Source: a virus (lineage: Duplodnaviria > Heunggongvirae > Uroviricota > Caudoviricetes). From it: a DNA stretch of 64,000 bases. Positions 29,002 through 46,260 of the stretch are shown piece after piece. The translations under genes were made by a program, and so were the position numbers. Position 1 is the first letter of the stretch. Each line of letters starts with the position of its first letter. The stretch lies in IMG/VR virus record IMGVR_UViG_3300031413_000001. The stretch is one strand, 5' to 3'. The notes beneath the pieces are model-generated. The model worked only from the letters and a program-made list of their open reading frames with translations. It was not told the DNA's origin and ran no database searches.

Positions 29002-29074
29002 GGGGGATTAGCTCATCTGGGAGAGCGCGTGCTTTGCAAGCATGAGGTGGTCGGTTCGAGTCCGACATTCTCCA
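29002..29074 (+). tRNA. tRNA-Ala(TGC)
   Basis: Cloverleaf, G3:U70. Confidence 0.9.
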
Positions 29075-29157
29075 CTAAGGCAAACGGTTGGAAATAAAAA
29101 TTCAACGGTGCGCTTTTTTATTGCTTGACATAACGTCAGGGCAGTATAAGTAAACAG

Positions 29158-29420
29158 GCAGCACGGAATAGTCCGCGCTACAGTTTTAAAGGAATGTGTT
29201 TTCAATGTTGCATCTAGGCACTCATATGGTATGCGGAAAGGTCGGCCAAGTCGCCGCCTCCTTTATCGCGACCGTACTGGGCGCCACATGGTCGCAGCGC
29301 GGAGAACAGATTTCCAACCCAGTCGATAGTAAGCGTCCATATGCGCTTAATACGGCCGGGGTCGGTTTCCAGGAGCAAGACTGGGGAGGTTAACACTTTC
29401 CATTCAGCTTTAGGAAAACA
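29158..29420 (+). ncRNA. Candidate ~270-nt structured ncRNA
   Basis: Promoter at 29125, catatgg/ccatatg and gcgacc/ggtcgc stems, own terminator. Confidence 0.45.
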
Positions 29421-29452
29421 GACCCCGGCAGGAAACTGCCGGGGTTTTTCTT
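29421..29452 (+). terminator. Rho-independent terminator
   Basis: accccggcag-gaaa-ctgccggggt followed by a T run. Confidence 0.85.
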
Positions 29453-29545
29453 TACTCTAACGTGCTTTTAGCACACAGCGGAAAAAGATTTAAAGGTCAG
29501 CATTTAGTTGTTGACACAGTAATCGGAAGCTGCTAAACTTTAGAT

Positions 29546-29880
29546 CGGCAGAAGCTTGCTTAGGCATGCAGATGCAGCACGGAGGGAAAGCAATTTTCCT
29601 CAGTGGATTGTAAGACAATTTCCAAGATGAGCCATAGCGCAGACTCAAAGAGTTGTCAAGCAATCAAAGTGGTAAACGCGGAACGAGACTGCGGGATAGC
29701 CACTCTAAATAAACCCAAATGGGCGTAGCCGAGGATGAAATCGGGGGTTAAATTACCCCGAGAGTAAAAATCAGATGGTCTAGTGATAGGCTGTCTCTTA
29801 GGCGAGTTGGGGAAGGAAGTTCCCTGACAGCGGTCAAGCTAGAAGTGCCTAGCAATATAGATCGCATATCACAAACAAAA
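29546..29880 (+). ncRNA. Candidate ~330-nt large structured ncRNA heading the tRNA array
   Basis: Promoter ttgaca 29511 / taaact 29534; ttgcttaggcat/gtgcctagcaa closing helix; several internal hairpins. Confidence 0.55.
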
Positions 29881-29891
29881 GGCCAAAACAT

Positions 29892-29968
29892 CGGGGTATA
29901 GCGCAGTCAGGTAGCGCGTTCGTCTGGGGGACGAGAGGTCGCAGGTTCGAACCCTGCTATCCCGACCA
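29892..29968 (+). tRNA. tRNA-Pro(GGG)
   Basis: Cloverleaf, encoded CCA. Confidence 0.9.
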
Positions 29969-29990
29969 AGCTGGTTAGTCCAGCATACAT

Positions 29991-30073
29991 TCCCGTATGG
30001 TGAAATTGGTAGATACGCTTGGCTGTTAACCAAGTGCGAAAGCGTGGAGGTTCGAGTCCTTCTACGGGAGCCA
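29991..30073 (+). tRNA. tRNA-Asn(GTT) with a long variable arm
   Basis: cttgg-ctgttaa-ccaag; G73; extra gcgaaagc arm. Confidence 0.8.
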
Positions 30074-30095
30074 AGCTGTTAGTCAGCAATAATAT

Positions 30096-30172
30096 CTAGG
30101 TGTGGCCCAATCTGGTAAGGCGTTCCCTTCGGGAGGGAGAGACTGGAGGTTCGAATCCTCTCACCTAGACCA
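30096..30172 (+). tRNA. tRNA-Pro(CGG)
   Basis: Cloverleaf, CCA. Confidence 0.9.
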
Positions 30173-30193
30173 AGCATGTCAGTCATGCACTAT

Positions 30194-30278
30194 GGACACG
30201 TTGAGCAATTGGTTGGCTCACCGCACTCTTAATGCGCCGGACGAAAGTCCCTTGTGGGTTCGAACCCCACCGTGTCCT
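30194..30278 (+). tRNA. tRNA-Lys(CTT) with a long variable arm
   Basis: cgca-ctcttaa-tgcg; ggac-gaaa-gtcc arm. Confidence 0.75.
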
Positions 30279-30282
30279 CTTC

Positions 30283-30357
30283 GGCCCCATCTTCTAATGG
30301 TCAGGAAAGCGGGTTCTCAACCCGACAATCGGAGTTCAATTCTCCGTGGGGTCACCA
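30283..30357 (+). tRNA. tRNA-Glu(CTC)
   Basis: Cloverleaf, CCA. Confidence 0.85.
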
Positions 30358-30377
30358 AGCTGTAAGTCAGCAAACAT

Positions 30378-30453
30378 TGCCCCTTGGCGTAGTTGGTAGC
30401 GCAGCGCACTCTGAATGCGAAGGTGCCTGGTTCGAGACCAGGAGGGGCATCCA
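30378..30453 (+). tRNA. tRNA-Gln(CTG)
   Basis: Cloverleaf, CCA. Confidence 0.85.
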
Positions 30454-30473
30454 AGCTGTTAGGCAGCAAACAT

Positions 30474-30547
30474 TCCCCTGTCGTCTAACGGTAGGACAAC
30501 AGACTCTGACTCTGTTTGTATTGGTTCGAATCCAGTCGGGGGATCCA
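30474..30547 (+). tRNA. tRNA-Gln(CTG), second copy
   Basis: Cloverleaf, CCA. Confidence 0.85.
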
Positions 30548-30567
30548 AGCTGTAAGTCAGCAAACAT

Positions 30568-30641
30568 GGACAATTAGCTCAGTTGGTAGCAGCGACGGTC
30601 TCTTAAACCGTAGGTCCTGGGTTCGAACCCCAGATTGTCCA
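30568..30641 (+). tRNA. tRNA-Lys(CTT)
   Basis: Cloverleaf. Confidence 0.9.
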
Positions 30642-30645
30642 CTCT

Positions 30646-30734
30646 GGAAGATGATTCAGCCTGGGAACGCTGACGGGGATTGCTAATCCTTTGGATCCGA
30701 AAGGATTGGGGTTCGATTCCTCCTTCTTCCGCCA
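30646..30734 (+). tRNA. tRNA-Ser(GCT)
   Basis: Long arm, G73, CCA. Confidence 0.85.
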
Positions 30735-30753
30735 AGCTGTTAGTCAGCAATAT

Positions 30754-30853
30754 GGAAAGTCGTACCGTCGAGGCCGACGGGCTGATGCAAATCATGTAAA
30801 CGCCCGTTCACCCCTACACGGCGTTTGAGGTTCGAGTCCTTCGCTTTCCGCCA
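30754..30853 (+). tRNA. Ser-type tRNA-like RNA with the anticodon loop reduced to a GCAA tetraloop
   Basis: ggaaagt/gctttcc-G-CCA, T loop, long arm, tgat-gcaa-atca. Confidence 0.65.
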
Positions 30854-30854
30854 C

Positions 30855-30926
30855 GCTCCTATAGTGATAATGGTAGCACAGCCCTTTGGTAGGGGGCCGG
30901 CAGAGGTTCGATTCCTCTTGGGAGCA
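30855..30926 (+). tRNA. tRNA-Thr(GGT)
   Basis: Cloverleaf. Confidence 0.85.
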
Positions 30927-30946
30927 CTGACGAAAGTCAACATCAT

Positions 30947-31028
30947 GCGGATATGATGAAACTGGTAGACTTGCAGGCATGAGAGGCCTGTGCCTTCGGG
31001 CGTGTGGGTTCGAGTCCCACTATCCGCA
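30947..31028 (+). tRNA. tRNA-Leu(GAG)
   Basis: Type II cloverleaf. Confidence 0.85.
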
Positions 31029-31034
31029 CTCCAC

Positions 31035-31117
31035 GCTCTGGTGGTGAAATGGTAGACGCAGCGCACTCAAAATGCGCCGGCCGCGAGGTCATGAGGGTTC
31101 GAGTCCCTCCTGGAGCA
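31035..31117 (+). tRNA. tRNA-Leu(CAA)
   Basis: Type II cloverleaf. Confidence 0.9.
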
Positions 31118-31174
31118 CTAGCAAGCTGGGTCCTAAGAGCGCCCTACTTGAGCTGGATAACGACCAGCAAACAT

Positions 31175-31258
31175 GCGGATATGATGGAATTGGTAGACTT
31201 GCTGCACTCAGAATGCAGTGCCCGAAGGGGCGTGGGGGTTCGACTCCCCCTATCCGCA
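31175..31258 (+). tRNA. tRNA-Leu(CAG)
   Basis: Type II cloverleaf. Confidence 0.9.
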
Positions 31259-31259
31259 C

Positions 31260-31390
31260 GGTGAGCCGATTGATATTGGGTTATCTTTCTGCAAAAAAGC
31301 GAGGCTTGGTTCGAATCCAAGTGCGCCCTCAATGTGGGCGTATAGTGTAGTGGTAGCACCGAAAACATCCAGATCTCCACTTGCTCACCA
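31260..31390 (+). ncRNA. YrlA-like Y RNA containing a circularly permuted tRNA-Cys module
   Basis: Outer stem ggtgagc/gctcacc with CCGAUUG / CCACUUG; order is anticodon (GCA), T arm, closed acceptor, D arm. Confidence 0.75.
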
Positions 31391-31394
31391 TTTT

Positions 31395-31465
31395 GCGCCT
31401 GTAGTTAAACGGTATAACGTTCGGCTGATAACCGGATATTGTAGGTTCGATTCCTTCCGGGCGCA
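31395..31465 (+). tRNA. tRNA-Ile(GAT)
   Basis: Cloverleaf. Confidence 0.85.
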
Positions 31466-31469
31466 CTCT

Positions 31470-31548
31470 GCACACCTAGACGAAAGTCGTTTGGAACGAC
31501 AAGGGTCTTTTAAGCCTTGGTCAAAGGGTTCGATTCCCTAGGTGTGCT
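31470..31548 (+). tRNA. tRNA-Lys(TTT), enlarged D region
   Basis: gcacacc/ggtgtgc; cttttaa loop. Confidence 0.75.
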
Positions 31549-31552
31549 CTAT

Positions 31553-31637
31553 GGAAGAGGAAAGTCATCTTGGATATGGCAGTCTGACTGTAAATCAGAT
31601 CCTTCGGGGAGTGGTTCGATTCCGCCCTTTTCCACCA
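31553..31637 (+). tRNA. tRNA-Tyr(GTA)
   Basis: tctga-ctgtaaa-tcaga; CCA. Confidence 0.85.
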
Positions 31638-31654
31638 AGCTGTTAGTCAGCCAT

Positions 31655-31729
31655 ATGGGTGTATGATACAGGTAGTCGACTGGTCTCCAAAACCATGCAG
31701 AGAGGGTTCGAATCCCTCCACCCATGCCA
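31655..31729 (+). tRNA. tRNA-Trp(CCA)
   Basis: ctccaaa loop; G73; CCA. Confidence 0.8.
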
Positions 31730-31750
31730 AGCTGTAAGTCAGCAATCCAC

Positions 31751-31823
31751 GCGAGGTGGGCGGTACAGGTTATCGCACTGGTCTCATAAGCCGGCAAAAC
31801 AGGTTCGAGTCCTGTACTTCGCA
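31751..31823 (+). tRNA. tRNA-Met or Ile2 (CAT)
   Basis: ctcataa loop. Confidence 0.75.
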
Positions 31824-31827
31824 CTAT

Positions 31828-31901
31828 GCAGCCATAGCTCAGTCTGGTAGAGCGGTACCCTGAAAAGGTACGCGTCGTTGGTTCAAATCCAACTGGTTGC
31901 A
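31828..31901 (+). tRNA. tRNA-Phe(GAA)
   Basis: Cloverleaf. Confidence 0.9.
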
Positions 31902-31904
31902 CTA

Positions 31905-31974
31905 GCAGGGACAAGCACCGGTCGCTGACTAGCCTCATAAGCTAGTATTAGATGGTTCGATTCCATCCTCTGCA
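31905..31974 (+). tRNA. tRNA-Met or Ile2 (CAT)
   Basis: ctagc-ctcataa-gctag. Confidence 0.75.
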
Positions 31975-32010
31975 ACTTGACAGACCGATCCTTTGTGCTA
32001 GGAAACCAGC

Positions 32011-32685
32011 ATGAAGGTCACTGCTCATAAATGCCCCTGGAGTGGCAAGCTGTTCGAAGATCCGAAGAAATATCGGAAGCATCTTCGATCACTACGCACT
32101 GAGCATCAGCTCTTGCGAGCCAAGGCACGGGCAACGGCAGATTTCAAACAGTCGTGCGCGCTTCTATATCAGGCGAACACCACAGATGAGATCGTCGAGT
32201 GGCTCAACGAAAACTACATGCAGGTTGCACTGCATTTTGGTCTTGGTTGGAAAACACGAAAGGGCGTTGTTCCTGGACCGGCTGATCGAGTGAGCTTTTC
32301 ATTCGAGAACGTCTACTTCAAGGAAAAGTGCTCAACAAGCCACGCGGCCCCCATTGGTCAAAAGCATACCGGTTGGGGACGACTGGGTAGCGGTGACGAG
32401 ATTGTGATTCCCGAAGAGGGATGGTATGGTCGGATCAGGGCTACCTTTGAGGGCAACGCATACGACTTCTTCGATAGTGACCATCTGAAGAACATTGGTG
32501 TCAACACTGGAAGCGGTGGTGGCGGAAACAATTCACTGGCCTACGAGGTAACTCTCTTCACCAAGGACTTTCCAGGTCTGCGGCGACTTTCATTGTTGAA
32601 CCAACTGGCGATCAACGATGGAAAACTTGGCCTAGATGGCAATGGTGTCGAACGGCAACCAGAGATCAGATCTAGGCGCTGGTAA
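32011..32685 (+). CDS. Hypothetical protein within the tRNA array
   Basis: 224 aa ORF with its own promoter. Confidence 0.75.
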   Translation: MKVTAHKCPWSGKLFEDPKKYRKHLRSLRTEHQLLRAKARATADFKQSCALLYQANTTDEIVEWLNENYMQVALHFGLGWKTRKGVVPGPADRVSFSFENVYFKEKCSTSHAAPIGQKHTGWGRLGSGDEIVIPEEGWYGRIRATFEGNAYDFFDSDHLKNIGVNTGSGGGGNNSLAYEVTLFTKDFPGLRRLSLLNQLAINDGKLGLDGNGVERQPEIRSRRW

Positions 32686-32690
32686 CAAAC

Positions 32691-32762
32691 GGACGATTGG
32701 CGCAGCGGTAGCGCGTTCCCTTGACATGGGAAAGGTCACAGGTTCAATCCCTGTATCGTCCA
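32691..32762 (+). tRNA. tRNA-Val(GAC)
   Basis: Cloverleaf. Confidence 0.9.
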
Positions 32763-32784
32763 CTGATCACTAAGTGATCGCCAT

Positions 32785-32856
32785 GGCGCGTGATGCTAAT
32801 GGCCGGCAGATAGGTTTTCACCCTGTTGTAAGCGGGTTCGATCCCCGTACGCGCTA
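32785..32856 (+). tRNA. tRNA-Glu(TTC)
   Basis: Cloverleaf. Confidence 0.8.
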
Positions 32857-32860
32857 CTTT

Positions 32861-32935
32861 GGACTACTGACGGGAACCGGCATACCTACTCCGCTTAAAA
32901 CGGAGTGTGTCCCGGTTCGAATCCGGGGTGGTCCA
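32861..32935 (+). tRNA. tRNA-Leu(TAA), short variable region
   Basis: ctccg-cttaaaa-cggag. Confidence 0.8.
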
Positions 32936-32941
32936 CTCCAT

Positions 32942-33024
32942 GGAAAGTTTCAGTCCCGGGACGGGATAAGCTGGCTGTAACCCAGTGGCTTCGGCGCGCA
33001 GTTCGACTCTGCAACTTTCCACCA
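32942..33024 (+). tRNA. tRNA-Tyr(GTA)
   Basis: ggaaagt/actttcc; CCA. Confidence 0.8.
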
Positions 33025-33025
33025 T

Positions 33026-33100
33026 GGTCCGTTAGCTCAGCGGTAGAGCATCTCGTTTACACCGAGGCGGTCGGCGGTTCAATCCCGTCACGGACTACCA
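33026..33100 (+). tRNA. tRNA-Val(TAC)
   Basis: Cloverleaf, CCA. Confidence 0.9.
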
Positions 33101-33101
33101 T

Positions 33102-33177
33102 GCCCTTGCCAGCGGATCTGGCCCCGACCGTGCGAAGGTCGGATTTGGATGAGGTTCAACTCCTCTCAAGGGCGCCA
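33102..33177 (+). tRNA. tRNA-Arg(GCG)
   Basis: cgacc-gtgcgaa-ggtcg; CCA. Confidence 0.75.
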
Positions 33178-33178
33178 C

Positions 33179-33250
33179 GGAAGTCTAGCCATCTGGGATG
33201 ACGTCTGCCTCACATGCAGAATTAGGTGAGTTCAATTCTCACGGCTTCCA
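33179..33250 (+). tRNA. tRNA-Val(CAC)
   Basis: tctgc-ctcacat-gcaga. Confidence 0.8.
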
Positions 33251-33254
33251 CTTT

Positions 33255-33323
33255 GCTCTCGCTGGCGGATCCAGCATCGGCCCTGCGAAGGCGGATTGGG
33301 TGGTTCGACTCCACCCGAGAGCG
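33255..33323 (+). tRNA. tRNA-Arg(GCG), second copy
   Basis: gcc-ctgcgaa-ggc. Confidence 0.7.
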
Positions 33324-33348
33324 CGAATATAGACTTATGGCATCCTAG

Positions 33349-33786
33349 ATGTTAGAAGAATATATGAACAACAAAGGTCTGAAAGACCAAACATTCACTT
33401 GTGGGTGTTGCGGTGAAGAGTTCCCCTTTAAGGGTTATTCCTTTACCCATCGGTTTTGCAGTTCTAAATGCGCTGGCGATGCGAAAGCAAAAGCCAAGCG
33501 TGTTGAAGTTGAACAACTGTTCCTTGAGGGAAAGCTAACTGCTCGACCTCACATTTACCAGCTACTGGTAGATAGGGATGGTAACGAATGTTCAGTATGT
33601 AAGATCACAGAGTGGAATGGCCAGTCCATTAGACTTTGGGTCGACCATATTGATGGCGATGCGACCAACAACGCACCGCTAAACTTCCGATTGATTTGTC
33701 CAAATTGCGACAGTCAATCGGATACGTTCGGGGCTCGTAACAAAGGCAACGGACGCAAGTCTCGCGGACTTCCTCAATACGGCTAG
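33349..33786 (+). CDS. HNH homing-type endonuclease
   Basis: CSVC...VDHIDGDATNN...LICPNCDSQ. Confidence 0.9.
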   Translation: MLEEYMNNKGLKDQTFTCGCCGEEFPFKGYSFTHRFCSSKCAGDAKAKAKRVEVEQLFLEGKLTARPHIYQLLVDRDGNECSVCKITEWNGQSIRLWVDHIDGDATNNAPLNFRLICPNCDSQSDTFGARNKGNGRKSRGLPQYG

Positions 33787-33803
33787 ATCGAAAGGGAGGT
33801 CTT

Positions 33804-34013
33804 ATGGACGAAAAACTATTCAATGACATGAATGCTCCAATCACTGCTACTTCGGTAGGATTGTCGTTACTCATTGGTATGCTCCGTGATAATGGTACCA
33901 TTACTAATGAACAGCTCAGCGAGCTTACCCGCATTAGGGAAAGCTTATTGGCTGCTCCTAATGTTGAAGAGCGCAATAAATTGCTTGCAGAGTTGTTAGA
34001 AAGGCTATTATAA
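33804..34013 (+). CDS. Hypothetical protein
   Basis: ggagg RBS. Confidence 0.6.
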   Translation: MDEKLFNDMNAPITATSVGLSLLIGMLRDNGTITNEQLSELTRIRESLLAAPNVEERNKLLAELLERLL

Positions 34014-34024
34014 TAGCCTGATAT

Positions 34025-34095
34025 TGGGATATCCTCTAAGGGTAAGAGATCCGACTGTTAATCGGTCAATCTAGGTTCGAATCCTAGTTTCCCAG
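34025..34095 (+). tRNA. tRNA-Asn(GTT)
   Basis: Cloverleaf, G73. Confidence 0.85.
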
Positions 34096-34173
34096 CAAGT
34101 AGACGAGCCGAAGCAATGAGGGTTATCCTTTTAAGATTCACCCCTCGACCGCATCAACTTGTTCGTCGACTAT

Positions 34174-34246
34174 GTTTGGATAGCCCAGTGGTGAGGCAGG
34201 CGCTCGTGAACAGCGTCGGAGGCAGGTTCGAATCCGGCTCCAAACA
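34174..34246 (+). tRNA. Atypical tRNA, undetermined (loop cgtgaac)
   Basis: gtttgga/tccaaac acceptor; D and T arms present; no U33. Confidence 0.6.
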
Positions 34247-34248
34247 CT

Positions 34249-34346
34249 TCCTGGGGCCGTTGTGGACTGAAACCATCAGCCGGAACTCACAACTAAGCCC
34301 TCGCGAGCAGCCTAATTAACTGCTCAAGCGGCGTGCCCCAGGGACC
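34249..34346 (+). ncRNA. CCA-terminated non-cloverleaf RNA
   Basis: tcctggg/cccaggg-A-CCA; gttgtg/cacaac; gagcag/ctgctc. Confidence 0.5.
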
Positions 34347-34353
34347 AACTACA

Positions 34354-34429
34354 TTGCCCAATTAGCTGTTCGGTACGGCCGCCGTGTTTTGAGCTCGGAA
34401 AGACAAAGGTTCGAATCCTTGTTGGGCAT
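34354..34429 (+). tRNA. tRNA-Gln(TTG)
   Basis: tgcccaa/ttgggca; ttttgag loop. Confidence 0.75.
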
Positions 34430-34944: not shown

Positions 34945-35550
34945 GGGGAACTCGAGTTCTCGTGGGGGCTGAAGCCCGCGCGATGATTCAGATGACCGAT
35001 CTCCTGAGGAGGTTGGTTCACTGAAGCTGGATTTGATGAAGTAATTCTGCCCGCACTGTGGGAACAACAGACCTTCATCGACAAGGCTGGACCGGAAATC
35101 GTCAATCAAATGTGGGCCTTCCAGGATAAGGGAGGTCGAGATGTTTGCTTGATCCCCGAGGCCACTGGTCTCATCCAAGAATTGTGGCGCGACAAGTGGA
35201 AGGGAATGGGGAAGCCCATGAAGATCTTCTACGTGCAACGCTGCTATAGATACGAACGGCCACAAGCCGGACGCTATCGGGAGTTCACGCAATTTGGTGT
35301 GGAGTATCTAGGCGGAAACGCCCAGGACGACCGCCAAGAGGTTGTTGAGCTACTGCGGCGCTGTATGGAAGCAACAGGTGTCAATTGGACGCTCGTTGAT
35401 GCTGTAAAGCGCGGTCTATCCTACTATGTTGAGGATGGCTTTGAAGCTGTCTGCGACCAACTAGGGGCACAGAAACAGGTAGCCGGAGGTGGTAGATACG
35501 CTGAAGGTATTGGTTGGGCCATTGGGCTTGACAGACTGCTTCTGGCCTAA
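34938..35550 (+). CDS. hisS: Minimal histidyl-tRNA synthetase-like catalytic core, split by a +1 frameshift near 35016-35024
   Basis: Motif 2 YRYERPQAGRYREFTQFG, RGLSYY, motif 3 GGGRY..GIGWAIGLDRL; frame-0 stop TGA at 35022. Confidence 0.8.
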
Positions 35551-35560
35551 TAGACAAGAC

Positions 35561-35639
35561 TTTGGGATGGTTGTTCCAGCATACGCAAGAGTGTATGAGA
35601 GGCTAGAGGGTTGCCCTCTTGAAAACCATCCCAAACCCA
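35561..35639 (+). ncRNA. CCA-terminated non-cloverleaf RNA
   Basis: 12-bp tttgggatggtt/aaccatcccaaa-C-CCA enclosing two hairpins. Confidence 0.55.
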
Positions 35640-35640
35640 T

Positions 35641-35713
35641 GGGGACTTAGCTCAGTTGGGAGAGCGACTCGCTGGCAGCGAGTAGGTCAGGGGTTCGACT
35701 CCCCTAGTCTCCA
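35641..35713 (+). tRNA. tRNA-Ala(GGC)
   Basis: Cloverleaf, G3:U70. Confidence 0.9.
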
Positions 35714-35714
35714 C

Positions 35715-35792
35715 TCAACGTAGCAGTTGGATAAGAGAAGATCAGCGCACTGGCTACCACGGCCGGTATTGATGTTCCGCTACGTTGAACCA
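35715..35792 (+). ncRNA. CCA-terminated non-cloverleaf RNA
   Basis: 10-bp tcaacgtagc/gctacgttga-A-CCA; internal actggc/gccggt with a 7-nt loop. Confidence 0.55.
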
Positions 35793-35793
35793 T

Positions 35794-35866
35794 GGCCTAT
35801 GACTCAGCTGGGAAAGAGAACCGCCTGTCTAGCGGAATTTGGTGGGTTCGATTCCCATATAGGTCG
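35794..35866 (+). tRNA. tRNA-Asp(GTC)
   Basis: Cloverleaf, G73. Confidence 0.8.
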
Positions 35867-35919
35867 CGCAGGGAAAGCCGCCGGAACTGGCTTGACACTC
35901 TGAGAGCAGAGAACCAAAT

Positions 35920-35988
35920 GGGGCATCCTCTGGGTGTTGTCGCTGCACTTGCACTGCGGTAGGAAGGGTTCGATTCCCTTATGCTCCA
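35920..35988 (+). tRNA. tRNA-Ala(TGC), weak D arm
   Basis: G3:U70; cttgcac loop. Confidence 0.7.
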
Positions 35989-36010
35989 CTGAACAACTGT
36001 TGTTCTCCAT

Positions 36011-36083
36011 GGTGACCGTGGTGTAGCGGTAACATTTCTGGCCTGTGAAGCCGGAGTCGCGGGTTCGAACCCCGTCGGTCACC
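36011..36083 (+). tRNA. tRNA-His(GTG)
   Basis: Encoded G-1:C73; ctgtgaa loop. Confidence 0.9.
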
Positions 36084-36125
36084 CCTTCTAATTGACAGCA
36101 CGGCAACGTGGTGTTAGTTTGATAA

Positions 36126-36267
36126 TGTTGCTGATGCAGCTTGAGAGGATGGTCTTAAAAAGCCAGTGCCCTTGGGTCGCTATACGGTCGAGCAATAGGG
36201 ACAAGATTACCCGGACGTGAAAGCGTGGTGAGGTTGCGTCGCTGGCGAGAGGATCCGGTTGGCAACA
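36126..36267 (+). ncRNA. Candidate structured ncRNA
   Basis: Promoter ttgaca at 36092; closing stem tgttgctga/ttggcaaca. Confidence 0.4.
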
Positions 36268-36271
36268 ACAT

Positions 36272-36346
36272 GCGGGCATAGCTCAGTGGTAGAGCACTTC
36301 GTTGCCAACGAAGATGTCGTGGGTTCGAGCCCCATTGCCCGCTCCA
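36272..36346 (+). tRNA. tRNA-Gly(GCC)
   Basis: Canonical, CCA. Confidence 0.95.
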
Positions 36347-36347
36347 T

Positions 36348-36418
36348 ACTCAGTTAGCACAATGGCAGTGCGGTCGGCCGATTACCGATTGATGAGGGTT
36401 CGATTCCTTCACTGAGTA
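36348..36418 (+). tRNA. tRNA-Ile(GAT)
   Basis: actcagt/actgagt; C33. Confidence 0.75.
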
Positions 36419-36419
36419 C

Positions 36420-36704
36420 TGATCTTGCAAGTCGAGTTACAGCAGGGCAGAGATGCTTTGAGGAAGTTCGCGACTGGCGTGAGGGACGAGTGGGAGGTGG
36501 CCAAAAGCCATCGTAAGGGAAGAGACCACCGTGATTAAGCCAGCAAGCCAAATAGACCATGGCAATCCTTCAGCTATATGGTCGGGTTGGTGCAGCCAGA
36601 GAGCAGTAAGTTCTCATCGCGTAATGGCGAGGCACAAGGCCAGAAATGGTCGGGTAGGTAGATTGTAGCATAGAACAGGATCGCGGCTACAGACGGCAAG
36701 ATCA
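36420..36704 (+). ncRNA. rnpB: Putative RNase P RNA (compact)
   Basis: P1 tgatcttgc/gcaagatca; P2 gttacag/ttgtagc; P3 cagggc/gctttg; P4 agttcgcga/tcgcggct with bulged U; GAGGAAGU and AACAGGAUCGCGGCUA motifs. Confidence 0.75.
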
Positions 36705-36709
36705 AACAT

Positions 36710-36780
36710 GCGGGTATCGTATAATGGTATTACCTCAGCCTTCCAAGCTGATGACAGGGGTTCGATCCCCCTTACCCGCT
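36710..36780 (+). tRNA. tRNA-Gly(TCC)
   Basis: Cloverleaf, U73. Confidence 0.9.
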
Positions 36781-36784
36781 CATA

Positions 36785-36884
36785 GGCTCCACCCTCTGAT
36801 TGCGCCCTCGTGGTTCTTTCAAGGTCCCGTCTCGAGTACGAGGGGCACTATCGGCTACCTAGGAAGAGCTGATAGTTGGGAGTC
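36785..36884 (+). ncRNA. Candidate three-way-junction ncRNA
   Basis: ggctcc/ggagtc, ccctcgt/acgaggg, ctatcggct/agctgatag. Confidence 0.4.
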
Positions 36885-36888
36885 ATCT

Positions 36889-36962
36889 GCGGGTATGATG
36901 TAATGGTAGCTTGACACCTTGCCATGGTGTACGCGGGGGTTCGATTCCCCCTACCCGCTCCA
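36889..36962 (+). tRNA. tRNA-Gly(GCC), second copy
   Basis: Cloverleaf, CCA. Confidence 0.9.
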
Positions 36963-37091
36963 AGGTTCGTAACGAGACGGTCCGGGATTCATGAGTCCCT
37001 GGGCACGGCGTGGAGCGAAGGGTTGGCCGGCAATGTATAGAACGTTGTGACGAGGCAGCCGGTGTGGGGTGTGGATACCCATTACGAACTT
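36963..37091 (+). ncRNA. Candidate multibranch ncRNA
   Basis: aggttcgtaa/ttacgaactt closing stem; gggatt/agtccc, gccgg/ccggt, tggggt/acccca. Confidence 0.45.
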
Positions 37092-37097
37092 TAACAT

Positions 37098-37173
37098 GGC
37101 CCCATGACGGAATGGGAATCGTGACCGCCTGCAAAGCGGATCTATGTGGGTTCAATTCCCACTGGGGCCTCCA
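37098..37173 (+). tRNA. tRNA-Cys(GCA)
   Basis: Cloverleaf, U73, CCA. Confidence 0.9.
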
Positions 37174-37227
37174 ACGTTTGTTGTATCGTGCATCCAAGTC
37201 CCGTCTGATGGGAAGAGGAGAAACAAT

Positions 37228-37563
37228 ATGGCAAAGTTGAGCAAAGCTGTTCTGCAAAGGCAGCAAAAAGTAGATTACGTCGCCACCCTAGGTGAAGATG
37301 AAAGTCTCGATCTGGACAAGATCATCGCAGAGCACGGCCCTGGACTAACAATCCACTGGGAAAGTGGCTACTATGATGATCCCGGAAGTGTCACCATTCG
37401 TCGCATCCGTGAGGAGTCCGACGATGAATATGAGGCACGACTTGAACTGTTCCGTCAGATGGAACGCGACGCTCGGAACACCGTGAAAGCGGCTGCTGAG
37501 CGAAAGCTGATGGAAGAGCGGGCAACTTACGAGCGACTCCGCAAAAAGTTCGAGGACCAATAA
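37228..37563 (+). CDS. Hypothetical protein
   Basis: gaggag RBS. Confidence 0.75.
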   Translation: MAKLSKAVLQRQQKVDYVATLGEDESLDLDKIIAEHGPGLTIHWESGYYDDPGSVTIRRIREESDDEYEARLELFRQMERDARNTVKAAAERKLMEERATYERLRKKFEDQ

Positions 37564-37641
37564 GCCGTAAGGGGACACGCTTTAGGCGTTCTGGCAAACA
37601 GGAACTCACCCACTGGGGAGCAAAAGTCCTGGTCCCCATAT

Positions 37642-37714
37642 GCAACTCTGGCAGTGATGGTTCATGCGCCGGACTGAAAATCCGAGAATGTGGGTTCGAT
37701 CCCCACGGGTTGCA
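37642..37714 (+). tRNA. tRNA-Phe(GAA), second copy
   Basis: Cloverleaf. Confidence 0.85.
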
Positions 37715-37743
37715 CAAGTTGACAACAGTCCATCCAGACAGTA

Positions 37744-38019
37744 ATGTCTAGTATGACTTTTGAACGCTTTGAAGATTATGTGAAGACAATGGGTGGCGCG
37801 GCAATCTGCGTTCACCTTTTTATCACACAGCTTCTCTTTGGTTTGATCATGCAGCGGCCGGATTTGGTAAGCCAAGTCCAATGGCCCCTCGCAGGATTAG
37901 CTTTGCTTTGGGGCTGGATGGTGGTTCGCCGCTCCCCAGCCACACAGTATGTTCGTTGTCCAACGTGCCACAGTCGAGTGGACGAAAAGACTATTGACAT
38001 GCCGAGCAAAGAGCCATAA
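37744..38019 (+). CDS. Hypothetical membrane protein
   Basis: Two TM helices, CxxC. Confidence 0.55.
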   Translation: MSSMTFERFEDYVKTMGGAAICVHLFITQLLFGLIMQRPDLVSQVQWPLAGLALLWGWMVVRRSPATQYVRCPTCHSRVDEKTIDMPSKEP

Positions 38020-38027
38020 GTTAGTGT

Positions 38028-38101
<74 letters not shown>

Positions 38102-38155
38102 CTTAGACCAAGAATGCAGGATAGCGTTATGCCTAGATTGATATGCTTGGTCGAT

Positions 38156-38345
38156 GGTCACCGATGGGTAACCAGTGGAGGCGGCAGAATTATCTGTAGC
38201 GTCTGCCGGAAGCCCCGACCCTGGTAACAACGCACGGGCCGGACAGTCTGGGTTATCTCAAACTCAAACTTTGAACAAACCCCCAGATTACCAACTTGTC
38301 CGTGTTTTTAACTTCAGTGAAACCCATCTTAAATATCCGGTCACC
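38156..38345 (+). ncRNA. Candidate structured ncRNA
   Basis: gatgggt/acccatc, cggaca/tgtccg, tctggg/cccaga long-range stems. Confidence 0.35.
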
Positions 38346-38363
38346 AGAAAAGGAGATCGGCTT

Positions 38364-38615
38364 ATGTACAATGTGGTTCCTGCACTCGACGCGCTCAAGC
38401 TCGTTGGCGTAAACGCCAAGGATTGGATCATCAAGGCTGCAAAGTCCAAGACGATCTGGTTCTCGGCTGCTCTCACTGTTTTCGGTGCCGTGGAGGGTTT
38501 TCTTCCACAGATGGCAACAGTCCTTGGATCGCACTACGGCGCGGTTATCTCGGTTGTTGGTGTTATCACCGGCTTGCTTCGCTTTGCAACTACGGACGCA
38601 ATCGCGGACAAGTAA
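38364..38615 (+). CDS. Small membrane protein, holin-like
   Basis: KSKTIW followed by two TM helices; aggag RBS. Confidence 0.6.
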   Translation: MYNVVPALDALKLVGVNAKDWIIKAAKSKTIWFSAALTVFGAVEGFLPQMATVLGSHYGAVISVVGVITGLLRFATTDAIADK

Positions 38616-38645
38616 TAAAGTCCTGGGCTCCGGCCCAGGCAACAT

Positions 38646-38715
38646 GCCCCGTCCAGCGGATCTGGTGATTGGCCTTCGAAGCCGATTTACGATGGTTCAA
38701 CTCCATCCCGGGGCT
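38646..38715 (+). tRNA. tRNA-Arg(TCG)
   Basis: cttcgaa loop. Confidence 0.75.
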
Positions 38716-38719
38716 CTTT

Positions 38720-38822
38720 GCAGTCGTAGCTCAGTGTTGTCCTTCAAGTTTCTGCAGGAACTCGGACATTGGAATGAGCGCCGGTAGCCCGGAGGTCGGG
38801 GGTTCGATTCCCTCCTGCTGCA
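38720..38822 (+). tRNA. Atypical tRNA-like RNA: large D-loop insert, 4-nt anticodon loop
   Basis: D stem gctc/gagc around a ~43-nt insert; ccgg-tagc-ccgg; canonical T arm. Confidence 0.55.
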
Positions 38823-38826
38823 CTTT

Positions 38827-38900
38827 GCATCTATAGATCAGCTGGATAGATCGTTGCCCTCCGAAGGCAAAGGCCGTTGGTTCGAATCCAACTAGATGCG
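38827..38900 (+). tRNA. tRNA-Arg(CCG)
   Basis: Canonical. Confidence 0.9.
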
Positions 38901-38935
38901 CTTGACAAGCGGTGTAGAGCTGCTAGTTAAAAGAT

Positions 38936-39080
38936 CGATACGAGGGTGGTCCTCTGGGAAATTACCACCTGGAGGAAAGCGGCCCTCTTGGACGAGGCTG
39001 GGTGAGGCGACGGGACTGGTAACTCGTTGCAAGAGACCAGATACTCCAAGAGACTCTCCTGCTTTCACAGCCCTTGTATC
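38936..39080 (+). ncRNA. Candidate rod-shaped ncRNA (6S-like architecture)
   Basis: gatacgagggt/gcccttgtatc, gaaagcgg/ctgctttc, tcttgga/tccaaga, ctggt/accag; promoter at 38902. Confidence 0.45.
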
Positions 39081-39084
39081 TTAC

Positions 39085-39157
39085 GCCGGTTTAACTCAGT
39101 TGGTAGAGTGCCACCTTTGTAACGTGGATGTCAGGGGTTCGATTCCTCTAACCGGCA
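39085..39157 (+). tRNA. tRNA-Thr(TGT)
   Basis: Cloverleaf. Confidence 0.9.
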
Positions 39158-39231
39158 CTGTGGCCCCTAGTGGGCGAGGGTGGGTCGCCCCCATCTAAAG
39201 CGGGTACGCTATGAACATTGGGTACCAACAT

Positions 39232-39302
39232 GCCTTTATCGTTTAGTGGTAAGACAACGGATTCGTAACCCGTAAACCAGAGTTCGATTCTCTGTGAAGG
39301 CA
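39232..39302 (+). tRNA. tRNA-Thr(CGT)
   Basis: Cloverleaf. Confidence 0.8.
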
Positions 39303-39470
39303 CCGACCAAGAGAGTTAACGCCGTAGGCCCACTGGGACGCCTTTGGAAGCATGGTATTACTGTTGGGCAAGCCCCTGGATATTTGGATTCCAGAAGGTA
39401 AAGGAACCGGGTGTGGAAACTGGTCCTTGGTCGCTTGACACCCTGTACTCCTGATGTTATTCAGGATTCC

Positions 39471-39734
39471 ATGTATAAGGGAACCTTCCGACACGACGAC
39501 TACGTCCACCCCCGATTGTTAAATCGGATGGGTCGTGAGGGTATCAATCTGCGGATTGAGGTCACTTTTGCCATAAGCAAAGAGTGGAAGGCGACTTGGC
39601 TCCCCATCTATGAATGGTTGGCTGAACATCGCGTTTCCTACTGGACCTATAGCCCGTTTTCCACGGACTACAGGCGATACTTTGGGTTCGAGAGAGCCCA
39701 GGACGCCATGCTGTTTAAGCTGACGTTCGCATAA
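39471..39734 (+). CDS. Hypothetical protein (F..AQDAMLFKL family)
   Basis: C-terminal motif shared with other small ORFs. Confidence 0.65.
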   Translation: MYKGTFRHDDYVHPRLLNRMGREGINLRIEVTFAISKEWKATWLPIYEWLAEHRVSYWTYSPFSTDYRRYFGFERAQDAMLFKLTFA

Positions 39735-39735
39735 C

Positions 39736-39803
39736 GCTCCAACCAATGGATGGAGGCGGTCCTCCTAAGACTGCCCTTGTAGGTTCGACTCCCACTTGGA
39801 GCA
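39736..39803 (+). tRNA. tRNA-Arg(CCT), reduced D arm
   Basis: gcggtc-ctcctaa-gactgc. Confidence 0.55.
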
Positions 39804-39843
39804 CTTGGCATAAGTAGATTGCAACTCAACAGGAGTAACTTTT

Positions 39844-39939
39844 ATGTTCAAGAAGATTTTCGAATTCGTCATTGCCAAGAAGCTGATTGAAAAGGTGCTC
39901 GCAAAGCGCGCAGCAAAGAAGAATCAGCCAAGGGTATAA
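39844..39939 (+). CDS. 31-aa cationic amphipathic peptide
   Basis: aggag RBS; MFKKIFEFVIAKKLIEKVLAKRAAKKNQPRV. Confidence 0.55.
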   Translation: MFKKIFEFVIAKKLIEKVLAKRAAKKNQPRV

Positions 39940-39979
39940 TTGACTTACGGCTAACCAAGCTGTAGAACAAGAATATGAT

Positions 39980-40052
39980 CGGCGGACCGATCGTTTAGGG
40001 TTATCGCATTGGAAGCACTGGTATGTGGGTTCGAGTCCCACCTCCCCGACCA
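39980..40052 (+). pseudogene. Degenerate tRNA-Pro(TGG)
   Basis: T arm and CCA intact; anticodon stem mostly lost. Confidence 0.5.
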
Positions 40053-40123
40053 CATGACGGGGAGTAGGCCAATTGGATGAGCCGGTTTACATCCTATTCA
40101 ACACTTGTCCGCCGATTATACAT

Positions 40124-40196
40124 GGTCCATTGGAGAAGCGGAGTTCTCGCCACCCTGTCACGGTGGAGATCACGGGTTCGATCCCCGTATGGATCG
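40124..40196 (+). tRNA. tRNA-Asp(GTC), second copy
   Basis: ccacc-ctgtcac-ggtgg. Confidence 0.9.
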
Positions 40197-40199
40197 CTG

Positions 40200-40345
40200 A
40201 ATCAAGAACCGATGGCCTTGGGTTATCGAAAACTAGCTGACCTTGGTCATGTAGGTTCGAGTCCTACCGTTCCGACTTTGACGGAACGTGGCGGAATTTG
40301 GCAGACGCGGCTATTATATCCAGAGCAAACAACTTGTTCTTGATT
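40200..40345 (+). ncRNA. Second YrlA-like Y RNA (permuted Leu-type tRNA module)
   Basis: aatcaagaa/ttcttgatt; CCGAUGG / CAACUUG; T arm, cgttccg-7nt-cggaacg, D arm. Confidence 0.75.
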
Positions 40346-40352
40346 CAATCTT

Positions 40353-40440
40353 GGAAGATTAATTGGACTGGGTCCAAACCTGCCTCGAAAACAGTGTGTG
40401 CGGCTAATACCCGTATGGAGTTCGATTCTCCAGTCTTCCG
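40353..40440 (+). tRNA. tRNA-Ser(CGA)
   Basis: Long arm, G73. Confidence 0.75.
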
Positions 40441-40443
40441 CTT

Positions 40444-40686
40444 ATGACATGGAACGATTATCCACTGATCAAGCCCGATACCAAGGGCTACTATATGACC
40501 GTCTATTTTGATCCCCTGGCGTGCCGGGAGTATTGGAAGGCCATATGGTATGATCCAAAGGATGATCGCTGGTGGCCTTGGCGTCTAAGCCAAGACAATC
40601 CCGAGGTCATAAAGTTTGTACCAGAATCACGGCATGATTACTATGTGCCTTGCGTGATGTGGTATGAACAAAATCATGGAAAGTAA
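40444..40686 (+). CDS. Hypothetical protein
   Basis: 80 aa aromatic-rich ORF. Confidence 0.55.
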   Translation: MTWNDYPLIKPDTKGYYMTVYFDPLACREYWKAIWYDPKDDRWWPWRLSQDNPEVIKFVPESRHDYYVPCVMWYEQNHGK

Positions 40687-40763
40687 ACTGCACAGGGTGT
40701 AGCACTGATTGGAAATCAGTTGGGACCGCAAGGTCTGGGGTTCGAGTCCCCTGCTTTCCTCCA
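40678..40763 (+). tRNA. tRNA-Ser(GGA)
   Basis: actga-ttggaaa-tcagt; long arm; CCA. Confidence 0.8.
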
Positions 40764-40764
40764 T

Positions 40765-40842
40765 CAGGGTGTGAGCTAATTGGTAAGCTGTCTCCTTTGG
40801 AAGGAGGACATCGTGGGGGTTCGAGTCCCTTCACCCTGACCA
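40765..40842 (+). tRNA. tRNA-Pro(TGG)
   Basis: C1:G72, A73, CCA. Confidence 0.85.
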
Positions 40843-40844
40843 AT

Positions 40845-40875
40845 GCGGCGCTGGCGAAAGCTGGCGTCGCTTTTT
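40845..40875 (+). terminator. Terminator closing the tRNA array
   Basis: gcggcgctggc-gaaa-gctggcgtcgc followed by ttttt. Confidence 0.75.
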
Positions 40876-46236: not shown

Positions 46237-46260
46237 ATTGATTGGTGTATTCTATAAAGA

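Follow-up and report, generated by a model that had tools for sequence, protein, structure and literature searches.

A probable tRNA operon of a jumbo phage that encodes a putative catalytic-domain RNase P RNA, Y RNAs and a predicted minimal histidyl-tRNA synthetase

We analysed a 64,000-nucleotide stretch of DNA (hereafter the window) from a virus of the Caudoviricetes (IMG/VR record IMGVR_UViG_3300031413_000001), and describe here a tRNA-rich island on its + strand, at positions 29002 to 40875. The window is 99-100% identical, in the two genes compared, to a 416,714-bp IMG/VR contig estimated to be 90% complete, and whole-genome searches were run on this near-identical record of a phage of about 417 kb. 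ARAGORN identified 49 tRNA genes in the window. The island contains 46 of them (29002-40842), all on the + strand, with at least one for each of the 20 amino acids. Among them we identified a putative miniature RNase P RNA, five Y RNA genes and a gene for a predicted minimal histidyl-tRNA synthetase (HisRS). We consider it likely that the island is the main tRNA operon of this jumbo phage, with the ribozyme, Y RNAs and HisRS read as set out below. The virus appears to carry much of its own machinery for making and maintaining tRNAs. Syntenic arrays of 43-50 tRNAs occur in close relatives of 435-465 kb, and a megablast search against deposited phages returned matches to single tRNAs only. Related contigs and genomes are designated below by L and G numbers.

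Two signals delimit the main array:

29511-29539, + strand: sigma-70-type promoter-like site (TTGACA, 17 nt, TAAACT, with TG before the second hexamer), kept in L004, L005 and L006; candidate promoter of the whole array
40845-40870, + strand: strong intrinsic terminator (11-bp stem with 8 GC pairs, then a T run), 3 nt past the last tRNA gene (tRNA-Pro, 40765-40842)

The former is the best + strand promoter-like site of the region. The two strongest + strand terminators are the one at 40845-40870 and another at 29420-29447, which closes a small upstream protein gene. No strong + strand terminator was found between 29447 and 40845, and every gene between the two terminators is on the + strand. 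The non-tRNA RNAs adjoin tRNAs with spacers of 0-7 nt and have the (C/A)(C/U)AU leader in common with them. This arrangement probably represents an 11-kb + strand unit running from the promoter to the terminator at 40845-40870, and it fits a single long tRNA-punctuated precursor that would be processed at the tRNA borders, as in the tRNA cluster of phage T4. Twenty phyllosphere and leaf-litter metatranscriptome runs contain 6-25% of the sampled words of 31000-40900, a result that supports no conclusion on expression or habitat.

The best-conserved segment of the island that is neither tRNA nor open reading frame (ORF) is the following (84-89% identity in L004, L005 and L006):

36420-36709, + strand: putative miniature RNase P RNA, 290 nt, ORF-free, exactly filling the gap between a tRNA-Ile and a tRNA-Gly gene

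A two-motif DNA pattern made from its invariant blocks matches 28 viral contigs, and from a profile search we obtained 22 distinct copies at full length (215-290 nt), so that the family has at least 22 members. An earlier 14-mer DNA pattern was unspecific (at least 119 mostly random loci), yet three true homologues were among its matches. In most loci the RNA is flanked directly by tRNA genes, and the position between tRNA-Ile and tRNA-Gly is kept in five relatives.

The earlier note on this DNA, which was made from the letters without database searches, had proposed an RNase P RNA here. That proposal is borne out by covariation among the 22 copies and by a reverse model search. Covariation was assessed on an alignment of the 22 sequences through which the helices had been threaded by hand beforehand, with the following result for each helix (alignment cells paired; pairs with compensatory change):

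P1: 88% paired; 7 of 7 pairs
P2: 99% paired; 5 of 5 pairs
P3: 90% paired; 6 of 7 pairs
P4 (inner 6 pairs): 99-100% paired; 4 of 6 pairs
P5: 89% paired; 2 of 5 pairs
P15: 99% paired; 1 of 5 pairs

Controls with slid partners gave 0-78% of cells paired, and no more than 50% for P2, P4 and P15. P2 and P4 cross to form a pseudoknot, which is the RNase P arrangement, and the long-range P4 was recovered by RNAalifold without guidance. The invariant nucleotides are GAGGAAG-U-UC, AGCAA-CCAAA-AG, CGGGU-GG-GC, AGAU..AUG and ACA..A....GGCUA. Conserved regions I, IV and V can be recognized in GAGGAAG-U-UC, AGAU(A/U)(A)AUG and ACAGAAUC..GGCUA, which are invariant or nearly so and align with positions 61-75, 328-336 and 347-361 of Escherichia coli M1 RNA. 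A CAA in J5/15 is followed by P15 (GCCAA/UUGGU, in which the single covarying pair was found) and by an invariant CGGG on its 3' side; these align with A248/A249, P15 and G291-G293 of M1, and the alignment would assign them a role in pairing with CCA. Retained, then, are P1-P5, the P2/P4 pseudoknot with its bulged U, the A-rich junctions, J5/15, and P15 with a G-rich loop. In RNase P RNA the G-G of P15/L15 pairs with the tRNA 3'-CCA, and the specificity domain reads the elbow formed by the T and D loops of the tRNA. This second domain (P7-P14, with conserved regions II and III) is lost from the phage RNAs, where a stem-loop of 30-60 nt lies between the P5 strands (a stub of about 60 nt in the window copy).

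Plain pairwise alignment with M1 RNA was no better than with shuffled sequences (z 1.2), and the homology emerges only when profiles and structure are used. The family profile, based on sequence alone, has a single match in a 5-kb E. coli locus, which lies inside rnpB at J18/2-P2'-J2/4-P4'. A covariance model built from the 22 phage RNAs alone recovers E. coli rnpB over its full length, at 2212-2598 (annotated as 2217-2593), with a score of 25.9 bits (E 1.4e-8); the second-best match reaches 8.9 bits. Model and rnpB are collinear through P1, P3, conserved region I/P4, P5, J5/15, P15/L15, P16, J18/2, conserved region V and P1', and 147 nt of specificity domain in E. coli stand where the phage model has 29 nt. 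We conclude from this comparative evidence that the element at 36420-36709 is an RNase P RNA of bacterial type A descent that is reduced to the catalytic domain and a stub. A group I intron was considered for the same interval and rejected, given that no Rfam intron model matched and the element lies between two complete tRNAs. In two relatives a GIY-YIG endonuclease ORF lies inside the RNase P RNA gene at the exact position of the specificity domain (L004:11898-12497 and L005:11860-12458), and the gene of L173 holds another insertion of homing-endonuclease type (L173:8701-9187).

We identified five Y RNA genes in the island, three of the YrlA type and two that are stem-only and YrlB-like. Scores are those of model R1, which was built from 13 large Y RNA genes of the window and four relatives:

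31260-31394, + strand: YrlA-type Y RNA with an extra hairpin that has a GCA loop; 101.4 bits
34097-34173, + strand: stem-only Y RNA with an exact GCCGAAGC motif; 24.1 bits, both model ends matched; orthologues 85-89% identical in L004, L005 and L006
38228-38312, + strand: stem-only Y RNA; 31.6 bits, both model ends matched; orthologues in L004, L005 and L079
39976-40121, + strand: YrlA-type Y RNA; 127.2 bits; Rfam RF02553 33.8 bits, the sole one that Rfam YrlA detects
40198-40350, + strand: YrlA-type Y RNA with a Leu/Ser-type D arm; 111.1 bits

The earlier note had named two Y RNAs, at 31260-31394 and 40198-40350; both are present and have the YrlA frame in common, with support far beyond chance, as for the RNase P RNA and the HisRS-like gene, and its count fell short. 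The alignment of the 13 large genes contains invariant CCGA, GG.UUAUC, GGUUC.A..CC and ACUUG blocks and compensatory changes at 17 of 25 pairs, with covariation in the terminal stems, the T stem and the acceptor stem. The Rfam YrlA alignment (39997-40114) places T arm, closed acceptor and D arm in the correct order. The tRNA-like module is absent from the two short RNAs, as in YrlB, and the genes at 38228-38312 and 34097-34173 belong with the minimal, YrlB-like Y RNAs. The one at 38228-38312 also matches the Rfam nematode family ceN72-3_ceN74-2 (33.6 bits), stem-bulge RNAs that are regarded as relatives of Y RNAs. The terminal stems of the three large RNAs carry the motifs GCCGAUUG, ACCGAUCG and ACCGAUGG, with U at position 6. 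These motifs, like GCCGAAGC, fit the GNCGAAN0-1G signature (Chen et al., 2014, PMC4201824).

The phage genome has a gene for a full TROVE/Ro60 protein (129.6 bits). In 20 related records, several strong Y RNA copies per genome (4-11 model matches) were seen only in combination with TROVE. Weak matches to the Y RNA model also occur within about 1-2 kb of the Ro60 gene in four related genomes (G003:15725-15889, G004:132217-132391, G006:310359-310536 and G012:247656-247803), and may represent a further Y-like RNA in the classical position beside rsr.

The synthetase gene, which the earlier note had called a minimal HisRS, spans two reading frames:

34938-35550, + strand: predicted mini-HisRS of about 205 amino acids, with ATG 34938 in frame 0 and the remainder in the +1 frame

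The 146-amino-acid ORF at 35110-35550 matches the HisRS and class II core families. An ORF of this kind is conserved at full length in about 35 contigs of large phages. Searched against the PDB, the family profile finds HisRS at E 3e-42 and HisZ at 1e-14. It aligns to HisRS positions 5-155 and 231-319 only, so that the insertion domain is skipped and the anticodon-binding domain is absent. The AlphaFold2 model (pLDDT 90.9) superimposes on E. coli HisRS with bound His-AMP (1kmm) with a TM score of 0.89 and a root-mean-square deviation of 2.4 A. The motifs RYERPQAGRYREFTQFGVE, KRGLSYY and GGGRY..GIGWAIG.DRL are invariant or nearly so, and all catalytic and histidine-pocket motifs are kept; we take these to be class II motifs 1-3 and the histidine-pocket motifs of RGLDYY and GGGRYD type. 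The product corresponds to a HisRS catalytic core of about 205 amino acids and may be capable of aminoacylation.

In distant relatives the protein is a single ORF of about 210 amino acids that starts M..KGTR. In the window and ten relatives the N-terminal piece is in the 0 frame and the rest in the +1 frame, where the encoded peptide is conserved upstream of any start codon. The junction reads (G/C)UU CAY in all 11 split genes, usually with UGA next and in most with GGAGG or GGGGG 3 nt 5' of the NUU. The window has GUU (35016-35018), CAC (35019-35021) and UGA (35022-35024), with GAGGAGG at 35006-35012; L013 and L016 keep CUU CAU, but the stop beside it is gone. If ribosomes slipped by +1 from NUU to UUC, the product would be collinear with the proteins of the unsplit relatives. 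At the slip the A site would be occupied by CAY (His), not by a stop as in prfB.

Because the product would be made only after a +1 slip on (G/C)UU CAY, more of it may be produced when charged tRNA-His runs short. We hypothesize a hungry-codon sensor, in which ribosomes short of His-tRNA-His stall at CAY, slip by +1 and thereby produce the enzyme. The island's tRNA-His(GUG) is the canonical type, with a genome-encoded G-1 opposite C73, and in 13 related loci a tRNA-His gene lies within 1.5 kb of the HisRS gene. Many alphaproteobacteria have a tRNA-His without G-1. If the host is one that lacks G-1, the HisRS/tRNA-His pair of the phage could be orthogonal to that of the host.

At gathering scores, Rfam reports tRNAs only. 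A permissive Rfam scan and hand reading added seven tRNA-type genes to the 46 found by ARAGORN, for 53 in all, or about 56 with the three tRNA-like modules within Y RNAs; this agrees with the earlier estimate of about 55 genes for all 20 amino acids. The tRNA blocks and the individual genes discussed here are:

29002-29075, + strand: tRNA-Ala(UGC), by ARAGORN and Rfam, upstream of the main operon
29892-31976, + strand: first tRNA block, with 18 ARAGORN tRNAs, tRNA-Ser(GCU), a Ser-type RNA without anticodon, a tRNA-like RNA and nine spacer hairpins
30646-30730, + strand: tRNA-Ser(GCU), by Rfam and hand reading
30754-30853, + strand: Ser-type RNA in which a GCAA tetraloop replaces the anticodon loop
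31470-31549, + strand: tRNA-like RNA, by Rfam and hand reading
32691-33324, + strand: second tRNA block, 7 tRNAs, by ARAGORN
35920-35988, + strand: Ala-like gene, whose counterpart in relatives is called by ARAGORN
36011-36085, + strand: tRNA-His(GUG), preceded by CCAU, by ARAGORN
38720-38822, + strand: tRNA-type gene with a hairpin of about 32 nt inserted in the D loop, missed by ARAGORN
39736-39804, + strand: tRNA-like RNA with an apparent 9-nt anticodon loop containing CCU, missed by ARAGORN
40353-40439, + strand: tRNA-Ser(CGA), by Rfam and hand reading

The Ser-type RNA at 30754-30853 has an intact acceptor stem, G73, CCA, the long arm and the T arm, and is 78-80% identical in L004 and L005. 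The leader preceding most tRNAs has the consensus (C/A)(C/U)AU: U occupies position -1 in 37 of the 46 tRNAs and A position -2 in 38, compared with a background of 24% each. Bacterial RNase P prefers U(-1), which is read by A248 of J5/15. The equivalent CAA is invariant in the phage RNase P RNAs. One base 3' of an encoded CCA, nine copies of a hairpin with 4-5 bp were identified between 29966 and 31743 (CCA-A-GCUG-UUAGU-CAGC). The hairpin has compensated variants, is also found in L004, L005 and L006, and is possibly a stop for 3' trimming or a nuclease signal.

Three further tRNAs lie outside the island on the same strand (16147-16234, 46354-46430 and 62214-62306; tRNA-Ser by ARAGORN). In related large phages we identified suppressor-type tRNAs, often paired, with a CTA anticodon (UAG; called Pyl by ARAGORN) in L011, L012, L016, L029, L160, L163 and L183 and with a TTA anticodon (UAA) in L161, which hints at stop-codon recoding in parts of the phage group. 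A tmRNA gene is present in L183.

The remaining features comprise other RNAs, small genes and one element outside the island:

29205-29393, + strand: gene for a 62-amino-acid protein, with a promoter-like TTGACA..TATAAG of its own, between tRNA-Ala and the main array; closed by the terminator at 29420-29447, so that gene and signals lie within 29120-29447
29545-29891, + strand: structured leader RNA of about 330 nt that runs into tRNA-Pro; no conserved ORF
32011-32685, + strand: gene for a 224-amino-acid protein, phrog_12523
33349-33786, + strand: HNH homing endonuclease gene (PHROG phrog_10822, E 1.8e-20)
34248-34354, + strand: hairpin RNA, the first of the proposed CCA-ended RNAs, with a terminal helix of about 10 bp followed by N-CCA
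35551-35640 and 35715-35793, + strand: two long-stem hairpins that flank tRNA-Ala(GGC)
36175-36271, + strand: ORF-free element that precedes tRNA-Gly, with 76-82% identity in five relatives and weak structure support
36782-36888, + strand: ORF-free element between two tRNA-Gly genes, 78-91% identical in L004, L006 and L079
38364-38615, + strand: gene for a hydrophobic 83-amino-acid protein, with a Shine-Dalgarno site
52096-52550, + strand: GOLLD RNA beyond the island, aligned to all 416 positions of the model Rfam RF02032 (145.9 bits, E 1.7e-40)

Of the other structured RNAs that the earlier note had proposed, the leader at 29545-29891 stands. It has no Rfam match, and 15 of its 90 predicted pairs are compensated in comparison with L004 and L005. 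The elements at 29205-29393 and 38364-38615 turned out to be small protein genes. An RNA reading of 29150-29455 and 38313-38500 was rejected on account of protein-level conservation with in-frame indels; the 62-amino-acid protein aligns in this way with L004, L005 and L006, and the product of 38364-38615 is possibly a membrane protein. No function could be assigned from Pfam, PHROGs or the protein atlas to the ORFs at 32011-32685, 34453-34944, 37144-37563, 37744-38019, 39411-39734 and 40444-40686, and none of them resembles an RNA ligase, a CCA-adding enzyme or the protein of RNase P. The three hairpins described as novel CCA-ended RNAs exist. One of them (34248-34354) is conserved, as an 80% identical copy in L006 only; the other two show no conservation by BLAST in relatives, and in both the CCA comes from the CCAU that leads into the following tRNA. 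All three would formally be minimal RNase P substrates. A further ORF-free block, at 28938-29001, is conserved in several relatives (74-91% for the three such blocks), with weak structure support.

A GOLLD-like RNA had been predicted nearby, and the full-length match agrees with this. Its position is 11 kb away from the array, with a sensor kinase gene on either side, and its score is just under the gathering score of 150, so that it was not reported in the gathering-threshold scan. The signal recognition particle (SRP) RNA that had been proposed at 46230-46720 was rejected: the match is partial, 30 nt long (model positions 31-60 of 97), and reaches 22.6 bits compared with a gathering score of 40. 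At 46230-46430 there is a TTGACA..TATAAA promoter, followed by a hairpin of about 46 nt with an apex like that of SRP domain IV (CAGGGCCGGAAGGCAGCA) and then by the tRNA at 46354-46430.

The sequence analysis establishes that each part exists, together with its homology, structure and conservation. A scheme for the operon put together from these parts adds, by inference, co-transcription, cleavage by the ribozyme, binding of the Y RNAs to Ro60, frameshifting and aminoacylation. The phage ribozyme would most likely cleave the 5' leaders of the phage's own precursors, almost all of which have U at -1. It would probably work with host RnpA, because the phage has none, and its own 3' end would be released by a cut of the same kind, made where the next tRNA begins. 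The five Y RNAs would be ligands of the phage Ro60 encoded elsewhere in the genome, and the HisRS core, encoded near the tRNA-His with its G-1:C73 pair, would be made only after the +1 ribosomal slip. In its most extended form the scheme makes the island a self-processing RNA factory. A ribozyme cut from the very transcript that it processes would, with the domain that reads the tRNA elbow lost, accept any helix with a CCA-like 3' end and a preceding U(-1), and would mature about 50 tRNAs, aberrant tRNA-like RNAs, five Ro60-bound Y RNAs and hairpin-CCA RNAs; alongside it would stand a private HisRS/tRNA-His pair, switched by frameshifting at a hungry His codon and possibly orthogonal to an alphaproteobacterial-type host without G-1. 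This extended form is speculative and probably not correct.

Several observations weigh against the scheme. No Rfam RNase P model (RF00010 and others) matches the element, the genome record or the homologue in L143 at E <= 10, and at this threshold the element has no match to any other Rfam family. Rfam misses these RNAs because the stub replaces the specificity domain; with that domain missing and no Rfam match, catalysis cannot be assumed from family membership. CCA is encoded by only 16 of the 46 tRNAs, though the ribozyme retains the CCA-binding loop. Of the four proteins that the earlier note had named as possible companions, Ro60 was found in the genome record and RtcB, a CCA-adding enzyme and RnpA were not, so host factors would still be needed. 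The best Y RNA score is below the RF02553 gathering score (33.8 compared with 69 bits), and the five Y RNA genes, being part of the tRNA operon, are separated by tens of kb from that for Ro60. Promoter-like sites in the region number 13, with 13.6 in shuffled sequences, and thus show no excess; phage-specific internal promoters would escape the scan used. In addition, the components are separate in many relatives, which argues against an obligate functional unit. Among the 20 related records, RNase P RNA is present in 10, Ro60 in 8 and strong Y RNAs in 4; a HisRS gene is often present where all three are missing, and the combination of all parts is found only in the window's own clade. The parts are modular additions to the tRNA regions of large phages and not an obligate kit, and the earlier description of a near-complete RNA housekeeping kit was overstated.

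Such modularity raises the question of whether the island is a loose set of separately acquired and separately transcribed modules in a permissive region, with tRNA processing uncoupled from release of the other RNAs. The uneven distribution of the parts in relatives, the variable gene order, and the homing endonucleases and small ORFs with their own signals that are interspersed in the array would all be expected in that case. Co-orientation of all genes and the lack of a strong + strand terminator from 29447 to 40845 speak for coupling, as do the close packing of RNAs against tRNAs with a shared leader and the retention of the RNase P RNA between tRNA-Ile and tRNA-Gly in five relatives. On balance, we find wholly independent modules somewhat improbable. 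It is also conceivable that the RNase P-like RNA is a true homologue that is no longer an enzyme and serves in regulation or as a decoy (for example by sequestering host RnpA, or by binding precursor tRNAs or the 3'-CCA), while host RNase P does the cutting. The missing specificity domain, the failure of all Rfam RNase P models, the absence of a phage RnpA and the interruption of the gene by endonuclease ORFs in some relatives are consistent with this. However, the nucleotides that have stayed invariant in 22 diverged copies fall in the blocks aligned with catalytic-core regions of M1 (J3/4-P4 with its bulged U, J2/4, J5/15 and the G-run of L15), compensatory changes keep all core helices, and the endonuclease ORFs sit exactly at the insertion site of the specificity domain, which is tolerant of big insertions. 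RNase P RNAs that consist of the catalytic domain only, whether archaeal type T or engineered from bacteria, are active, which also counts against a loss of function. We consider a non-catalytic role unlikely.

Least probable by far, and largely refuted, is the view that decay or error accounts for the unusual parts. The split HisRS gene would then be an assembly error or a pseudogene in decay, and the Y-like RNAs would be degenerate, rearranged tRNA pseudogenes. It could draw on the two frames of the HisRS gene in the window, and on Y RNAs that hold tRNA-derived arms and score under the Rfam threshold. Yet the same frame break at NUU-CAY recurs in 11 independent assemblies with 45-83% protein identity, conservation of the +1-frame peptide extends upstream of the first ATG, and the catalytic motifs are intact in a confidently predicted fold. 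The stems of the Y RNAs that do not derive from tRNA covary, and the Y RNAs co-occur with Ro60. We favor the reading of the island as a tRNA operon with a ribozyme, Y RNAs and a frameshift-dependent HisRS core.

RNase P RNA counts as a housekeeping ribozyme of cells. A bacterial-type RNase P RNA cut down to the catalytic domain, conserved across dozens of large phages and encoded amid its likely substrates, would provide a compact model for substrate recognition without a specificity domain and would show the extent to which large phages replace host RNA maturation. It also explains a recurrent unannotated gap in phage tRNA arrays that goes undetected by Rfam. Two testable ideas follow from the other parts: that Ro60/Y RNA surveillance is wired into a viral tRNA operon, and that a synthetase depends on frameshifting at the codon of its own amino acid, which would be a new kind of autoregulatory sensor if true.

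The RNase P RNA resembles bacterial type A RNA (E. coli M1, rnpB; RF00010) in the collinear P1, P2 and P3, the GAGGAA(A)G junction, P4 with its bulged U, and P5. The likeness extends to the CAA of J5/15, P15 with a G-rich L15, the P16 hairpin, AGAU(G/A)AAUG before the 3' strand of P2, and ACAGAA..CGGCU(U/A)A. Unlike M1 (about 377 nt), the phage RNAs have only 215-290 nt, with a 30-60-nt stub in place of the 147 nt of P7-P14, a variable or absent P18 region and one A fewer in J3/4, and they are encoded by phages within tRNA arrays. Archaeal type T RNase P RNA (Pyrobaculum; RF02357) has little beyond the catalytic domain and still works on precursor tRNAs. The phage RNA is likewise naturally reduced to little more than this domain. 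However, type T belongs to the archaeal lineage, with its proteins, and does not match in sequence, and the phage RNA is clearly of bacterial type A descent. In phage T4, a cluster of 8 tRNAs is co-transcribed with the stable RNAs species 1 and 2, which tRNA-processing enzymes including RNase P release from a common precursor. The island is similar in that genes for presumably stable non-tRNA RNAs lie among those for phage tRNAs. The T4 cluster differs in having no ribozyme gene, Y RNAs or synthetase, and in depending wholly on host RNase P.

Our literature search returned no description of a phage-encoded RNase P RNA. The earlier suggestion that the combination was undescribed in phages needs to be narrowed: phage Y RNAs and GOLLD RNAs in tRNA arrays have been published. 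Closest is a side remark on bacterial genomes, in those sections of Behra et al. (2022, PMC9569102) that describe extra homologues of RNase P RNA in Mycobacterium austroafricanum and M. sp. YC-RL4, with an altered specificity domain and conserved functional residues. There, an endonuclease gene lies between two annotated pieces of the RNA and horizontal transfer is suggested; as described in those sections, the copies are much like the GIY-YIG-split genes of L004 and L005, and phage origin, tRNA arrays and a family analysis are not part of the remark (PMC9569102). GOLLD RNA in tRNA arrays and prophages is attributed to Morgado (2020) where PMC9569102 cites that work. The RNA in the window resembles the published ones in being a full-length match within a tRNA-rich genome, and differs in its distance of 11 kb from the array.

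The Y RNAs resemble YrlA and YrlB, which act with Ro60 (Rsr), in the motif-bearing terminal stem, the order of the tRNA-like module, the shorter partners without module and the presence of Ro60 in the same genome (PMC4201824; RF02553). YrlA RNAs in phage species, as well as RNase P cleavage of a YrlA followed by CCA addition, were reported by Chen et al. (2014, PMC4201824). Unlike YrlA and YrlB, the phage RNAs are encoded by five genes (with up to 11 model matches in relatives) that lie in a tRNA operon rather than beside rsr; position 6 of the motif is U in the three large RNAs, and two carry an extra hairpin.

A frameshift at a His codon in a mini-HisRS gene is, as far as our literature search found, undescribed. 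The programmed +1 site of prfB (release factor 2) reads AGGGGG UAU CUU UGA. The HisRS site shares with it a Shine-Dalgarno-like G-run, here 3 nt 5' of the NUU, re-pairing on UUN, and a 0-frame stop that follows at once in most copies. In contrast to prfB, the A site of the HisRS gene would hold CAY, and the stop comes one codon later and is dispensable, as L013 and L016 indicate. The regulated product is HisRS-like, which suggests that the site senses charged tRNA-His and not a release factor.

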